A stretch of 64,000 nucleotides of DNA from an uncultured candidatus Porisulfidus sp. (GCA_965214545.1 OZ243950.1:1478440-1542439), one strand, 5' to 3'; numbered from the stretch's first letter, positions 5,530 through 29,748 are shown. The notes: a model not told the origin generated them from the letters alone. Numbers and translations are program-made.

Positions 5530-6465
5530 TCATGCAAGTTGCACGCCGGCCAAGGGGCGGGCGTTGCAGAAATCCTGCGCGGACATTCGCCGGCCGCCGG
5601 CCCGTTGCAGTTCGGTGACCTGCACCTGTCCGTCGCCACAGGCCACCCACAGGCCGCTGCGGTCGCAATGCAGCACCGTGCCGGGCGGTTCGGCCGTTTC
5701 ACGGGCATGCGCCCGGGCCTGCCACAGGCGAAGGATGTCGCCGCCGTAGCGGGTGGTGGCGACCGGGCGGGGGTTGAAGGCGCGGATCTTGGCGGCGATC
5801 CGCCCGGCCTCATCGTGCCAGGCGACGGCGGCTTCGTCCTTGCGCAGCATCGGCGCGCAGCAGGCCTGCGCCTCGTCCTGCGGCCGTCGTGACGGGTGTT
5901 TCGGATCGAAATCGGACAGGTACCGCAACAGCAGGTCGGCGCCCAGCGGGGCCAGACGGTCCTGGGCCGAGGCCGCAGTCTCATCGGCTGCGAAAGCGAG
6001 GGATTCCTGGTCCAGGATGTCGCCGGTATCCAGACCCGCATCCATCAGCATGAGGGTACAGCCGCCGGTCCGGTCGCCGGCTTCGATGGCGCGCGCCATC
6101 GGGGCGGCGCCGCGCCAGCGCGGCAACAGCGACGCATGGATGTTGAGGCTGCCGCCCGGGCACAGCCCGAGCCAGGACTCGGGGATCAATCGCCCGAAAT
6201 CCGCCACCACCAGGGCATCGGCCTGGTGCGCAGCTAGTTCGCCGCGTACCGAAGCGTCCAGCGTGTCGGGGCGCAACAGCGGCAGCTGCCCGGCCAAGGC
6301 GATGTCCGCGACGGCCGTGGGGCGCAACTTCAGGCGCCGGCCGGCCGGGCGGTCCGGTTGCGACAGGACCGCGCACAGGGCGTGGTCGCTGGCTTGCAGA
6401 CGTTCGAGTACGACGGCGGCGAACGATCCGCTGCCGGCGAAAATCAGCCGCAGGGCCCCTGCGGC
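5530..6465 (-). CDS. fmt: Methionyl-tRNA formyltransferase; start codon uncertain
   Basis: LRLIFAGSGSFAAVVLERL... HASLLPRWRGAAPMARAIEAGD ... C-terminal domain matches Fmt throughout. No ATG/GTG/TTG in frame between the def stop (~6473) and the LRLIF motif. Confidence 0.8.
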   Translation of the reverse strand, partial: AAGALRLIFAGSGSFAAVVLERLQASDHALCAVLSQPDRPAGRRLKLRPTAVADIALAGQLPLLRPDTLDASVRGELAAHQADALVVADFGRLIPESWLGLCPGGSLNIHASLLPRWRGAAPMARAIEAGDRTGGCTLMLMDAGLDTGDILDQESLAFAADETAASAQDRLAPLGADLLLRYLSDFDPKHPSRRPQDEAQACCAPMLRKDEAAVAWHDEAGRIAAKIRAFNPRPVATTRYGGDILRLWQARAHARETAEPPGTVLHCDRSGLWVACGDGQVQVTELQRAGGRRMSAQDFCNARPLAGVQLA

Positions 6466-6472
6466 GGAGGAA

Positions 6473-7018
6473 TTAGGCGTGAACGTAGGACTCTGGGCGC
6501 CGGGTCCGTCTCGGGACCTGCCCGGCGCGCGCCATTTTGCGCAGTTTTTCGGCGACGCGTTCCCGCTTGAGCGGCGAAAGATAATCGACGAACAGTGTTC
6601 CGTTGAGGTGGTCGATTTCGTGCTGGATGCACACGGCCAGCAGGCCGTCGGTCTCAATCTCGAAGGCTTCGCCGTGCTCGTTCAGGGCACGGCAGCGGAT
6701 TCTCTCGGCGCGTTGCACCGGGGCCCGGAATTCCGGGACCGACAGGCAGCCTTCTTCCATCTCTTCCGTGCCTCCGGCTTCGACAATTTCCGGGTTGATC
6801 AGGCACATCGGTTCGCTGCCGTCCTCGCTGAGGTCGATCACCACGATGCGCTGGGGGATGTTGACCTGCACGGCGGCCAAGCCGATCCCGAATTCGTCGT
6901 ACATGGTCTCCAGCATGTCGGAGACGATGCGCCGGGTCTCGTCGGTGACTTCGGCAACCGGCTTCGCCACCGTGCGCAGGCGCGGATCCGGGAAATGGAG
7001 GACTTCAAGTTGTGCCAT
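6473..7018 (-). CDS. def: Peptide deformylase
   Basis: [21 protein letters not shown]... GLAAVQV ... EGCLSVP ... QHEIDHLNG are the three conserved Def motifs. Start is the internal Met of ORF 6473..7045. Confidence 0.85.
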
Positions 7019-26357: not shown

Positions 26358-26681
26358 TCAGTCGCTCAAGCTGCGTTCCTGCAGGTCAATCTCGCGTTGC
26401 TGTTCGCCGACATGCCCGGCCAGGTACAGGGCAATGGTGAGCGCGGCGGCCGTGCCGACCGCCATCGACTGCTGCCAGGCCGAGGCCCCGCCGCTGAGTA
26501 GCCTCAGCAGCCAGAGCAGGCTCAGGTAGGCCAGGTAGAAAAACCAGAAGGCCACCGGCACCAGCGCCGGGTAGGGCGGGTCGCTGAACTGGATCAGGTA
26601 CAGGGCCGCCAGCGCCACGCCTGCGGCCAGCAGGATGACCTGGGACAGGTAATTCGAAATAAGGGAGCGGAAACGGGACAT
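26358..26681 (-). CDS. Small integral membrane protein (3 TM), translationally coupled to cysS
   Basis: 107 aa hydrophobic. Its stop is 2 nt from the cysS ATG. Confidence 0.5.
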   Translation of the reverse strand: MSRFRSLISNYLSQVILLAAGVALAALYLIQFSDPPYPALVPVAFWFFYLAYLSLLWLLRLLSGGASAWQQSMAVGTAAALTIALYLAGHVGEQQREIDLQERSLSD

Positions 26682-26838
26682 CGGGTTGCGGGGCCTGCGG
26701 GCGTCGGACGGTTAATTTTAGAACAGGCCCAGCTTCTCCCCGAGTTTGAAGCCCCGCCTCACGAAGAAGAGGCCGCAGGCCGTGCCCGAATCGGGGCAGT
26801 GTTAAAATGGGGCTTTCTCCAAAAACTGGGCACGACTA

Positions 26839-27030
26839 ATGGATCAAACCTATCGAGACGCGGTCAGCCGCATGGAAGAACTGGGGGTCGACCCCGAGTA
26901 CATTCTCGGCTGGCAGGGTGGTTATCTAGGCCACCCGACACGAGAGGAGCAACGCCTTACCGAAGCCTATCAGGCCGGATTTGAGGATGGCCAGGAAAAG
27001 GAAACCGGTAATTTCGAGAACTGGGCGTAA
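26839..27030 (+). CDS. Small hypothetical protein (63 aa), first gene of the low-GC islet
   Basis: MDQTYRDAVSRMEELGVDPEYILGWQGGYLGHPTREEQRLTEAYQAGFEDGQEKETGNFENWA. GC ~50% against a ~67% background. No recognisable domain. Confidence 0.4.
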   Translation: MDQTYRDAVSRMEELGVDPEYILGWQGGYLGHPTREEQRLTEAYQAGFEDGQEKETGNFENWA

Positions 27031-27056
27031 GCGAAATCCATCATGATCTCGCTGAT

Positions 27057-27389
27057 GTGGTTGTACAGCCAAAAAGCAAAATCAATGGCATCCGTTTAAA
27101 AGAGATGATTCTTTCCACTTTGGATTTGTATCTAAGTGAAGATCGGGTTTCAGCAGAGGTTCTCCAGGGTGAAGCCAAGCGGAGACATGGCGACTATTAC
27201 CAAAGTTTCGGGTACTACCTACGCTTGTACCGTCAACGTGCTGACCTGACGCAGGTAGAACCGGCCGATCGAACGGGTATCCTCCAGCATCATTTGTCTG
27301 AAATGGAGAACAACAAGCGGGTGCTGGGGAAATCGAACGCCATGAAACTGGCGAAAATACTGGATTGTGACTATCGAAGGCTCTTGTAG
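27057..27389 (+). CDS. XRE-family HTH transcriptional regulator with unknown N-terminal extension
   Basis: C-terminal Cro/C1-type HTH: LRLYRQRADLTQVEPADRTGILQHHLSEMENNKRVLGKSNAMKLAKILDCDYRRLL. Confidence 0.6.
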   Translation: MVVQPKSKINGIRLKEMILSTLDLYLSEDRVSAEVLQGEAKRRHGDYYQSFGYYLRLYRQRADLTQVEPADRTGILQHHLSEMENNKRVLGKSNAMKLAKILDCDYRRLL

Positions 27390-27513
27390 GTCTGGTGAGA
27401 AATCCGGGCTAGAGGTGATCCCAGATAGCGACGGGGCAGAATCCTATAACTGGGTGGAAGCCCGGCATTCAGGGATATGGCGGTAATCCGGTCTCGTGCG
27501 TAGACCGGGTGAT

Positions 27514-28077
27514 TCATGTATAGGTTGTGCCGAAGCCCGGTGCCGCAGCTAAAACTTCTTCAACCTGACCGGTGGCCAGTTTCTCCAGAGGTGTCACGGT
27601 TTCTTCAGCAAATGGCCATTCCTGGGAAAGGAAAGCCCAAGCGAGTACAGGGTCATCAATGATTCCCAAGACTTGGGCAAGGCCCGGAACAACCTTGCCC
27701 GGGGCCACAATCTGCGCGGCAGGAATGTTCAGGCCGCGCTTGGTAGATTTCCAGGCAAGCAGCGTTTTTTTTGAGACCCAATCATAGATAGTTGGGCGTG
27801 ATACCTGTAGACGCGCCGCAGCTTTAGAGACTCCGATAGTTTCTTGATCTGCCGGTCGACGGATGACGAACGGCTTGAGTGCTGTGACGATTTCATCGAA
27901 AGCATCATTGGCACGCGCCTCGGATTTGGCAGCGGCTGCCTCCAAAGCAACGGCAACAGCCATAATCGCATCCCGAGGGTGCTGGTGAAGAAAGTTTTCG
28001 GCACTACGTGACAGGACCGGAATTTCGTCTTTAAGAAAACCTGTGACCTGTTTTTCCAGTGCGGTCGCTTCGTCCAT
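27514..28077 (-). CDS. Hypothetical protein with central AlpA/excisionase-type HTH (HTH_17)
   Basis: IGVSKAAARLQVSRPTIYDWVSKKTLLAWKSTKRGLNIPAAQI resembles MerR/AlpA-like HTH. Flanking domains are unknown. Confidence 0.5.
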   Translation of the reverse strand: MDEATALEKQVTGFLKDEIPVLSRSAENFLHQHPRDAIMAVAVALEAAAAKSEARANDAFDEIVTALKPFVIRRPADQETIGVSKAAARLQVSRPTIYDWVSKKTLLAWKSTKRGLNIPAAQIVAPGKVVPGLAQVLGIIDDPVLAWAFLSQEWPFAEETVTPLEKLATGQVEEVLAAAPGFGTTYT

Positions 28078-28130
28078 GGGCTAAATTCCATCATTGCTCC
28101 ACGGGCAAATCATATAAAAAATTCCAATAT

Positions 28131-28157
28131 ATGTAAAGTTTGTAAATAATGTAAACC
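28131..28157 (+). promoter_or_regulatory. Triple direct repeat TGTAAA in the divergent promoter region of the islet
   Basis: aTGTAAAgttTGTAAAtaaTGTAAAcc, between the divergent starts at 28077 and 28260. TATAAT at 28201-28206 and an AGGAG RBS precede ATG 28260. Confidence 0.35.
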
Positions 28158-28259
28158 TATTCATGGGCACTTGGGCTTTCGGCGCACAGGAAAAATGTCT
28201 ATAATGATGCGCCCAAATTAAGCTACAGACTTATTTGGATTTTTATAGGAGAAAAACAA

Positions 28260-28697
28260 ATGGGTGTACAGGCGTTTGATGTGGCTTCTTATATCCTTAA
28301 AAAGTGTGGCACGATGCCCGCCATGAAACTACATAAACTCGTCTATTATTCTCAGGCATGGTCCCTTGTGTGGGATGACAAGCCTATTTTCCATGATCGG
28401 ATTGAAGCATGGGCAAATGGCCCAGTTATTAGGAATTTGTATAACGAACACAAGGGAAGGTTTCGGGTTGGTAGCATAAAGAGCGGCGATTGGAAATTGC
28501 TGGACGTTGATCAACGTGAAACTATTGATGCTGTTCTTGACCATTATGGGGATAAATCTTCACAGTGGCTCAGTGACTTGACCCACATGGAGGCTCCGTG
28601 GAAAGAAGCACGGGCAAAGGCGGGGCTTGCCAGTGGGCAACGTGGAAGCGCATGTATTACCCATGCGTCTATGGCTGAATATTACTCTGGTTTATGA
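28260..28697 (+). CDS. Panacea-domain (DUF4065, SocA/GepA-like) protein, putative antitoxin
   Basis: MKLHKLVYYSQAWSLVWDDKPIFHDRIEAWANGPVIRNLY matches the DUF4065/Panacea core. Confidence 0.6.
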   Translation: MGVQAFDVASYILKKCGTMPAMKLHKLVYYSQAWSLVWDDKPIFHDRIEAWANGPVIRNLYNEHKGRFRVGSIKSGDWKLLDVDQRETIDAVLDHYGDKSSQWLSDLTHMEAPWKEARAKAGLASGQRGSACITHASMAEYYSGL

Positions 28698-29143
28698 AAA
28701 GAAACTTGGGTAAAAAACCAACCACAAAATTATCCAAATCAGTCGAAAGCCCCCGCCCCACCAAAAAAGCGAAGAGTGGCGAGGGTCCGAGCAAAGATGA
28801 TCATTTGTCTTGGAGATTCAGTTCGTGTGATAGGAATGGCCCTTGGCCTTGGCCGAACTTATCAGATCCAGAAAAATACCGGCGTGTGATAGAGAAACTA
28901 TCTGGTCTTGAGCAAATGAATCAAGAGCAAATTAAAAACACAGGGAGTCATCCCATTGCTGTTGATGCTCTTGTGAAAGATGCCAGAGACCGTCTCCAAC
29001 AGCTCCATAAAGATGATGTTGATGAGCTTTACTCGTTCCGCATTTCTGGCAGAGAAAGAGTATGGTGCATAAGGAAACAGAATGTTATGGAGGTTTTGTG
29101 GTGGGATCCCAATCACGAGGTATGCCCCTCGACACCTAAGTGA
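28694..29143 (+). CDS. Putative toxin partner of the Panacea protein: Lys-rich N-terminus and a C-terminal RelE/ParE-like motif (tentative)
   Basis: Overlaps the upstream stop (ATGA). The C-terminus ELYSFRISGRERVWCIRKQNVMEVLWWDPNHEV resembles the ...YRI.Y....V.ILRI.HR... toxin signature. No confident family assignment. Confidence 0.3.
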   Translation: MKRNLGKKPTTKLSKSVESPRPTKKAKSGEGPSKDDHLSWRFSSCDRNGPWPWPNLSDPEKYRRVIEKLSGLEQMNQEQIKNTGSHPIAVDALVKDARDRLQQLHKDDVDELYSFRISGRERVWCIRKQNVMEVLWWDPNHEVCPSTPK

Positions 29144-29151
29144 TATCCAAG

Positions 29152-29712
29152 TCACGCTCCGCCTGAAACCAGGCTGCGAAGGACCCGCCGCAGCGCCGTC
29201 GCAAACTTCGGCGCCTCGCGGTCGATGACGTAAGTGGCGATCCACTCCTGCTCCTTTTCCCCCATGCTGCCGGCCACCGCATCGCCGAGCTCCCGGCGCA
29301 GCGCGAACCCCGGGCCCTTTTCCTCGGACCATTGACCGCCCGCGTAGGTTTCAGTCTGCGCATTGAGTTGTTCGATAAAGCGGGCCGCATGCTCTCCCGG
29401 ACCGTCGCATTCCAGCCGGTTGTCCTGCATCAGCGCGGCCAGGTGCCGGGCCAGCGAGGAGATCAACGGGGCCCGGGCCTCATCGGGCAGTCGCGACTGG
29501 GTTTCACGGTCGGTCAGGTGCACGCCGAAGATTGCGAACTGCCCGATAACGTCCAGCCGCTGTGACCAGTCGGCCGTTTCAAACCCTTCGTTCTCGAGCG
29601 CCAGCAGGGCGTCGCCAGCGAGCCGCCAGATATTGACGGACAGGGCGCTGGCCGTCTGGTCCGCGCTGCGCGGCGTTTCGCGCTGGTTCCAGTGTCGGGA
29701 AAGGCGGGGCAT
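29152..29712 (-). CDS. Hypothetical protein (186 aa), divergent from the downstream operon
   Basis: Clean ORF with background GC and no recognisable motifs. Confidence 0.45.
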   Translation of the reverse strand: MPRLSRHWNQRETPRSADQTASALSVNIWRLAGDALLALENEGFETADWSQRLDVIGQFAIFGVHLTDRETQSRLPDEARAPLISSLARHLAALMQDNRLECDGPGEHAARFIEQLNAQTETYAGGQWSEEKGPGFALRRELGDAVAGSMGEKEQEWIATYVIDREAPKFATALRRVLRSLVSGGA

Positions 29713-29748
29713 GGCGGGACTCCGATCGTGATGCTAACACGCTTTGCC

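Follow-up and report, generated by a model that had tools for sequence, protein, structure and literature searches.

The DNA analysed here is a stretch of 64,000 nucleotides (nt) from an uncultured candidatus Porisulfidus sp., referred to as the window, and the element under study is panAT (28199-29150), a pair of genes encoding a Panacea-domain protein, PanA, and a predicted toxin of 149 residues, PanT, which sequence comparison indicates to be an intact, horizontally acquired two-gene cassette. Five small open reading frames (ORFs) lie in this part of the window, encoding in order a 63-residue acidic protein, a 110-residue XRE protein, a 187-residue helix-turn-helix (HTH) protein, PanA and PanT. 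The guanine plus cytosine (GC) content from ~26.8 to 29.15 kb is 0.40-0.55, against 0.61-0.77 in the flanks, and the contrast extends to GC at third codon positions (GC3): 0.43-0.61 in the five small ORFs and 0.80-0.87 in cysS and in the genes for a 107-residue membrane protein, a 186-residue protein and a DUF6866 protein. An earlier note on this DNA had reported both the low-GC patch and the five ORFs; the composition of the patch bears out the former, and all five ORFs are present where the note had placed them. The proteins of the window have no exact match on record in public collections.

The panAT cassette and the pairing of its genes

The panA gene (28260..28697, + strand) encodes a standalone Panacea (DUF4065) protein of 145 residues, the predicted antitoxin. 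Residues 24-115 match SocA_Panacea (PF13274) with E 2.5e-18 and 67.5 bits (gathering score 25.7), and the protein matches phrog_1281 with E 6.6e-34, in agreement with the Panacea identity first read from the sequence. Panacea is a textbook 'hyperpromiscuous' antitoxin domain. The panT gene (28694..29143, + strand) overlaps panA by 4 nt (ATGA, 28694-28697), an overlap that the earlier reading had also seen, and its product combines a basic disordered tail (residues 1-35), the motif WRF..D..GPW.W (residues 38-53) and a predicted RelE/ParE-fold core (residues ~57-145). The antitoxin shares the Panacea/SocA domain with that of the type VI system SocAB of Caulobacter, but the likeness ends there: PanA reaches only 39.5 bits against NCBIfam SocA_antitoxin (NF047745, cut-off 190), its partner is predicted to have a RelE fold and is not SocB, and nothing points to a ClpXP-adaptor mechanism.

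The leader of the cassette (28199..28259, + strand) contains a TATAAT box at 28200-28205 and the sequence AGGAG 8 nt before the ATG. The box has a poor -35 element and was not called by a promoter scan of 26650-29350, and no operator or upstream motif was found to be common to the panA leaders of 21 panAT loci. The closest relative of the cassette, in a gammaproteobacterial metagenome-assembled genome (L241), shows 83% DNA identity over 911 nt (window 28199-29109, the end of the L241 contig), and the homology starts exactly at the TATAAT box, CTATAATGA, 60 nt before panA. Upstream of the shared DNA the gene content of L241 differs (IS1595, an EcoRI-type methylase and a GmrSD/HNH gene), so the cassette measures ~0.95 kb and is separate from the 187-residue HTH gene that precedes it in the window. 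Both panA and panT are intact and under purifying selection, the ratio of nonsynonymous to synonymous substitution rates against L241 being 0.067 for PanA and 0.10 for the toxin (0.06 in the toxin core, 0.36 in the tail).

Syntenic loci were found in four relatives (L088-L091) via homologs of the flanking 186-residue protein (90, 89, 84 and 74% identity), and none of the four carries a Panacea gene, a 149-residue toxin gene or a 187-residue HTH gene at this locus. The absence of panAT from the locus in all these relatives and the GC3 of panA and panT (0.43-0.44, against 0.80-0.87 in the native flanking genes) support, for panAT, the horizontal acquisition that the earlier note had proposed for the whole low-GC patch.

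The pairing of the two genes was followed in a genome scan with one genome per species, which gave 181 toxin loci, the pairing counts being made on 87 loci (L001-L087). The 181 loci are spread over very diverse phyla, with examples in Poribacteria, Arenicellales, Chlamydiota, Magnetococcales, Thiomargarita, cyanobacteria, Dehalococcoidia, Desulfosarcina, Salinarimonas and Bradyrhizobium. In 82 of the 87 loci the gene immediately before that of the toxin, on the same strand, encodes a PanA homolog (phmmer E <= 1e-38), which confirms the Panacea-partner pair suggested at the outset; the gaps between the two genes in these 82 loci range from -86 to +24 nt, plus one of 247 nt, and tblastn detected both genes in 86/87 loci. 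The arrangement recurs in viral DNA: the toxin was found on 61 viral contigs of IMG/VR, with PanA adjacent in 51 of the 53 that have upstream DNA present, and, from the PanA side, a toxin of the family lies downstream in 75 of the 80 best viral loci. Four independent long contigs have a Panacea gene of 145-148 codons directly upstream of the toxin gene with all other neighbours differing (smpB; rpsF-rpsR-rplI with mipZ; a two-component system; IS66/RHS genes). The two genes occur strictly together and in a fixed order, in many phyla as well as in (pro)phages. The identities of PanA and of the toxin to the window proteins co-vary across loci (Spearman 0.65), and the GC content of the module is lower than that of its own flanks in 72/81 loci.

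Some individual copies deserve mention. The copy of L241 (1458-5000) adjoins the IS1595, methylase and GmrSD/HNH genes named above, and that of L001 (3482-3961, 8971-9562) follows smpB immediately and has a BrnT/HTH pair nearby, both contexts being reminiscent of a defence island or a toxin-antitoxin cluster. In two viral contigs (L116, L117) ~1.9 kb of inserted DNA stands between the PanA and toxin genes, versus the usual ~70 nt.

The PanT family and cluster T1

PanT belongs to a large family for which Pfam has no model: a word-indexed search returned 21 close homologs, and an exhaustive profile search 2381 clusters at 50% identity, of which 1755 at E <= 1e-10. The curated RelE/ParE models (PF05016, PF06769, PF05015, PF15738 and similar) do not match the window protein. 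The matches recorded elsewhere were to NCBIfam MAG6450_fam (E 8e-4, under the cut-off), to phrog_8366 (function unknown, E 1.6e-9) and, in PADLOC, to the C-terminus of NsnC (E 0.005) and to Cas11f (E 0.03), the last two at chance level.

The AlphaFold2 model of PanT, made from a 22-sequence alignment, has a mean predicted local distance difference test score of 74, with values of 85-93 at residues 61-140 and below 50 at residues 4-33. Its elements are, in order, a short strand (39-42), two helices (59-73 and 77-82), a strand (86-89), a helix (95-103) and three strands (111-138), and they include the helical hairpin packed on an antiparallel sheet that defines the RelE/ParE fold. The best Foldseek matches were HP0894, YoeB, YafQ and HigB, with template modelling scores of 0.5-0.64 on target length, and in two fold searches the RNase-type members came first, with ParE structures lower (score 7.2-6.3). 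The predicted structure thus shows PanT to have the RelE/ParE fold; what had been a hunch about a weak RelE/ParE-like C-terminus stands at fold level, structure prediction on ORF 28694-29143 having recovered the fold core.

Conservation was measured on 148 representatives of the family (alignment A2). R122, W136 and H141 are invariant; W40, D46, G49, E73, H86, A97, R100, L101, L135, W137, D138 and P139 are conserved in at least 90%, and R116 in 85%. In hhalign comparisons with E. coli YoeB and RelE, which are non-significant (probability <=0.5%), R122, the conserved Arg of the central strand, falls opposite YoeB R65 and RelE R61. H141 lies just after the last strand, which we take to be the position of YoeB H83. 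The penultimate His of the C-terminal consensus ...KKHT was also considered as a catalytic residue and rejected, as its position varies between H, N and R in the family. The disordered N-terminal tail follows the pattern K7-x-P9 ... P20-x-x-x-K24-x-P26-R27 in about 75-85% of the 148 representatives; in the window toxin the second Pro of the pattern is replaced by Ala. The basic C-terminal tail is shorter in the window toxin, and the right recombination junction lies 15 nt beyond it.

According to the model, PanT has the same fold as the mRNA endonucleases RelE, YoeB, YafQ and HigB, but it differs from them in several respects: it is without Pfam or PDB profile match; it has ~55 extra N-terminal residues, comprising the basic tail (KxP...PxxxKxPR) and WRF..D..GPW.W; an extra short strand and helix are placed between the helical hairpin and the sheet; and a Panacea protein takes the place of RelB, YefM, DinJ or HigA as antitoxin. 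Two other members of the family are worth recording. In P0130 (642 residues) the toxin domain occupies the C-terminus (residues 526-642) and the N-terminal 525 residues have no Pfam match, so this protein may have a fusion or polymorphic-toxin-like architecture. P0245, from Legionella pneumophila (HAT1802334.1), is a family member with 42% identity, and this species would be a convenient cultured host for the module.

The family was compared with the toxin clusters of Kurata et al. (2022, PNAS, PMC8832971), in the portions of the article and its supporting data used here. That survey predicted 1268 PanAT loci with 88 toxin clusters; its validated PanT toxins are membrane, cyclase, MazF-like, toxSAS and Doc toxins, and its Dataset S1 includes four untested clusters with RelE/ParE-type HHpred or CDD matches (pT15, pT31, pT59 and pT70). 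Cluster T1, with at least 217 rows in Dataset S1, is together with pT2 (at least 218) among those with the highest row counts (PMC8832971). T1 combines a PanA without an N-terminal domain and an antitoxin-first order, it has members in Legionella, Bradyrhizobium, cyanobacteria, Bacteroides, Spiroplasma and phages, and SI Table S1 gives the label 'mRNase' to its E. coli MOD1 member (PMC8832971).

The window family resembles T1 in several respects: both have a standalone PanA upstream, the antitoxin-then-toxin order, a small gap or overlap and a partner annotated as 'hypothetical protein', and, in the part of the T1 listing used, both occur in Legionella, Bradyrhizobium, cyanobacteria and phages, with no species in common between the 80 best genome loci and the T1 species names listed there. 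Alignment A2 matched the T1 member of Salmonella phage Emek (YP_006560566.1) in hhalign with probability 96.9%, E 1.4e-10 and 149 columns, and the family profile matched the protein beside panA in Escherichia phage E212 with probability 96.7% and E 3.5e-10. As its profile aligns to these two proteins, the window family shares ancestry with T1 and probably belongs to it. Both phage proteins retain H86, R116, W136 and D138, but they differ from the window proteins (motif LWWDPxH) at the two invariant polar positions: R122 is replaced by A in Emek and by P in E212, and H141 by F in both. The window family would therefore probably stand within T1 as a subfamily retaining the candidate catalytic R122/H141 pair. 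The earlier description of PanT as an 'unclassified toxin' remains valid as far as Pfam is concerned, no family of which matches it, and gives way on the wider point, given this homology to a known PanT cluster.

Proposed mechanism and alternatives

We favour, with a probability of roughly 0.6, a type II module in which binding by PanA keeps a RelE-fold toxin silent; the toxin would most likely cleave mRNA on the ribosome. Translation of panT is coupled to that of panA through the ATGA overlap, and on this proposal PanT would be a growth-arresting toxin acting as an endoribonuclease of the RelE/YoeB/HigB type that cuts mRNA, probably on the ribosome, with the invariant R122 and H141 as putative catalytic residues aided by H86, R100 and R116. 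PanA would neutralise PanT by direct binding, as is reported for other standalone-Panacea PanAs, in one case via the unstructured N-terminus of the toxin (Ernits et al. 2023, PMC10440598). The Lys/Pro-rich pattern in the tail of PanT may serve in docking to PanA or to the ribosome. The 'toxic', 'RNase' and 'direct neutralisation' steps are those that we infer.

Several observations weigh against this proposal. No Pfam family matches PanT, and the HMMER family profiles found no RelE/ParE match among PDB sequences; Pfam run on 148 family members gave two matches to ParE_like (0.048) and one to YoeB_toxin (0.006), nothing consistent; the Foldseek E-values are weak (0.07-1); the putative catalytic residues are assigned from conservation and from the non-significant alignments described above; and the window toxin ends in ...CPSTPK, against the family consensus ...CPSxKKHT. 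In 86/86 loci PanA is the better conserved of the two proteins (median identity to the window proteins 58.7% versus 40.7%), the reverse of the usual type II pattern and unusual for a classical antitoxin. Among the toxins recorded as experimentally validated in the portions of PMC8832971 used here there is no RelE-fold PanT, and the two T1 members tested there (E. coli MOD1 and Salmonella phage Emek) are given as 'not toxic' in E. coli. The replacement of R122 and H141 in the Emek and E212 proteins belongs here too.

The conservation bias and the two non-toxic T1 members are also what a trigger-dependent pair of sensor and effector would lead one to expect, for example one serving in phage defence or as a phage-borne counter-measure, in which PanA senses a cue and the effector stays harmless until activated, so that its overexpression is non-toxic. 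We regard this as a tentative and rather unlikely explanation, although (pro)phage contigs often carry the module, its L241 copy adjoins an EcoRI-type methylase and a GmrSD/HNH gene, and a sensor role has been suggested for Panacea (Ernits et al. 2023, PMC10440598). Against it, PanA matches 0 families of PADLOC-DB v2, where the toxin matches are at chance level and no known anti-phage defence system was matched, which leaves the defence module offered as an option in the earlier note without a PADLOC system model behind it; and the genes next to the module are mostly housekeeping genes that differ between loci. Moreover, the Arg/His pair that is invariant in the window subfamily is missing from the Emek protein and its E212 homolog, so the subfamily may not share the non-toxicity of the members that were tested. 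One specific form, equally doubtful and meant for T1 together with its Arg/His-bearing subfamily, would have the unusually conserved PanA hold a catalytically competent RelE-fold nuclease via its conserved basic N-terminal tail and free or activate it on a cue such as phage infection; if true, a latent pair of this kind would explain the non-toxic overexpression of T1 members and would give Panacea a defined sensing role.

Less likely again is a toxin of RelE/ParE fold that does not cleave RNA, i.e. a ParE-like gyrase poison or a toxin with another non-ribosomal target. The weak ParE_like matches of two family members speak for it, as does the mention of ParE among the PanT domains by Kurata et al. 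(PMC8832971). In both fold searches, however, the ParE gyrase poisons rank below the RNase-type members, and the PanT family has a polar set suggesting catalysis, in which one Arg and one His are invariant and a further His, Arg, Glu and Asp nearly so, and the basic N-terminal tail fits nucleic-acid or ribosome binding. ParE toxins are not known to have a conserved catalytic set. The ribosome-dependent mRNA endonuclease silenced by PanA thus remains the reading that we prefer for panAT.

Neighbouring genes and the surrounding locus

The gene for the 63-residue acidic protein (26839..27030, + strand) forms the left edge of the variable part of the locus. Its product belongs to the Alvin_2107 sulfur-globule oxidation family (NCBIfam NF049856, equivalog; E 3.4e-29, 101 bits, cut-off 60). 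The earlier note had counted this gene as a member of a foreign islet; it is native despite its lower GC3, because all four relatives keep it, in three of them (L088, L089 and L091) beside the 107-residue gene and cysS, the fourth being L090. Its DNA is 80-88% identical to that of the relatives, like the flanks. The GC3 of the gene, 0.61, is well below that of its native neighbours (0.87) despite the conserved synteny. The left boundary moves accordingly from the proposed 26.7 kb to about 27034, where the foreign-looking DNA sets in.

The gene that follows (27057..27389, + strand) encodes the 110-residue XRE protein, whose match to HTH_3 of Pfam (E 3e-07) confirms the DNA-binding protein recognised before. 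It is an orphan antitoxin of the XRE/HigA type that has lost its toxin gene and its own first ~5 codons: in the window it has a GTG start and no evident ribosome-binding site, and in L088 and L089 an 88-residue ORF upstream of the XRE gene overlaps its start by ATGA and matches PF05016 ParE_toxin (E 1.6e-05, 25.8 bits, cut-off 23). The 360-nt stretch that holds this ParE-family toxin is absent from the window at 27034-27036. On this comparison the window gene is what remains, the antitoxin, of a ParE-family toxin/XRE pair still complete in L088 and L089; the pair of the relatives is ATGA-coupled and its toxin matches PF05016, like ParE-family/XRE pairs with HigBA-like order, whereas the window toxin is gone. 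The XRE DNA is 96% identical to that of L089 (window 27034-27390; L089, reverse complement, 6331-6965), versus 84-88% in the surrounding native genes, suggesting a recent exchange of this piece.

The 187-residue HTH protein (27514..28077, - strand) had been called 'AlpA-like'. Its matches to HTH_17 and to excisionase-type HTH models (residues 80-112) are all sub-threshold in Pfam and NCBIfam, and its homologs, on five short metagenome contigs (50-65% identity), pair with RES toxins: in L094 the same-strand ORF after the homolog encodes a RES protein (PF08808, E 7.8e-15), and in L095 the start of a RES ORF is seen in the same place. An AlpA/excisionase identity was rejected on these grounds. 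In the window, a 48-codon ORF whose ATG overlaps the stop of the 187-residue gene (ATGA) runs into the XRE segment. Residues 6-37 are 44% identical (BLASTP, E 2e-07) to the N-terminus of the L094 RES ORF, and the ORF corresponds to the 5' stump of a RES-domain toxin gene, about 37-42 codons long (27392..27517, - strand), that ends at the junction with the XRE segment. Because the homologs have RES partners and the stump is ATGA-coupled, the 187-residue protein is the antitoxin of an HTH/RES pair that has had its toxin truncated; no full RES toxin lies directly downstream of it in the window, and with the toxin reduced to ~40 codons the window copy is a remnant. The relatives' pairs resemble Xre-type/RES pairs in being ATGA-coupled and in the PF08808 match of the RES protein, but the 187-residue antitoxin has no Pfam match to the usual Xre/MbcA/ParS toxin-binding domain. 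Pfam has no model specific to this antitoxin family, and no homolog of the 187-residue protein was found in the 87 panAT loci.

The divergent spacer between the 187-residue gene and panA is 182 nt long, with a GC content of 0.35, and contains, as reported earlier, three copies of TGTAAA (28132-37, 28141-46 and 28150-55, spaced by 9 nt). Control of panAT by these repeats was not borne out. On the minus strand they read as three TTTACA hexamers and form part of a promoter and probable operator of the 187-residue gene (28109..28155, - strand), with two sigma-70-like sites (TTTACA-18-TATATT and TTTACA-17-TATGAT) directed at that gene, the only promoter-like sites called in the promoter scan. A related motif, ACAAACTnnACA, is found upstream of the 187-residue homologs in all four contigs with upstream sequence (L092-L095), and the stretch of DNA that the window shares with the L241 panAT cassette does not include the repeats. 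From these sequence comparisons, the repeats are part of the promoter of the 187-residue gene and not of that of panAT.

The DNA from 27391 to 29158, which contains the RES stump, the 187-residue gene and panAT, is specific to the window in comparison with its closest syntenic relative, L089: blastn aligned 27034-27390 and then 29159-29722, and between the two blocks there are 1768 nt in the window and ~41 nt in L089. The right edge is as sharp as the earlier note had it (~29.15 kb), with the panT stop at 29143, the stop of the convergent 186-residue gene at 29152 and homology to the relatives back at 29158-29159. Between the 63-residue and 186-residue genes the content is different in every relative: a ParE-family toxin with XRE in L089; such a pair plus a T5orf172 gene in L088; an autotransporter, a RhuM gene and methylase genes or fragments in L090; and an N6_N4 methylase in L091. 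Outside this interval, L088 has an IS605-type TnpB/Cas12f-like gene between the 107-residue gene and cysS, and a ParD-like gene of 71 codons adjoining the DUF6866 gene. An integrase-borne island was considered and rejected: there is no recombinase or integrase among the ORFs of the region, no tRNA or tmRNA (transfer and transfer-messenger RNA) gene in 20-36 kb, no Rfam match around the islet, and no flanking or att-like direct repeat around it longer than expected by chance.

Comparative evidence thus describes the locus as a recombination-prone chromosomal cargo hotspot between the native 63-residue and 186-residue genes, which keeps one intact panAT cassette together with remnants of two older toxin-antitoxin pairs; the XRE and 187-residue neighbours are no part of the PanAT module. 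A single 2.4-kb islet of five genes, in which the XRE and 'AlpA-like' regulators would control the PanA-toxin pair from the TGTAAA promoter, accounts for the adjacency of the genes, their shared low GC and the divergent layout around an AT-rich spacer, but is highly improbable given that the 63-residue gene is native, that relatives without panAT have XRE paired with a ParE-family toxin, that the 187-residue homologs pair with RES toxins and never with panAT in 87 loci, that the TGTAAA motif is kept before those homologs and lies outside the L241-shared DNA, and that 21 panAT loci have no conserved upstream motif.

For the host genome this is an ordinary finding, one further accessory toxin-antitoxin cassette, and the locus documents a small chromosomal hotspot where toxin-antitoxin modules gather and erode. 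The element itself is of a fairly ordinary kind, and its toxin family has been listed before, as T1, and never shown to work. In the portions of the survey used here, T1 is one of the two largest predicted clusters of Panacea partners, without a validated member and with two tested members that were non-toxic (PMC8832971). For this T1-homologous partner family the present analysis supplies a predicted RelE/ParE fold, and it delimits a subfamily (2381 clusters at 50% identity) that spans many phyla as well as (pro)phages and keeps the invariant Arg/His pair missing in the Emek and E212 proteins.

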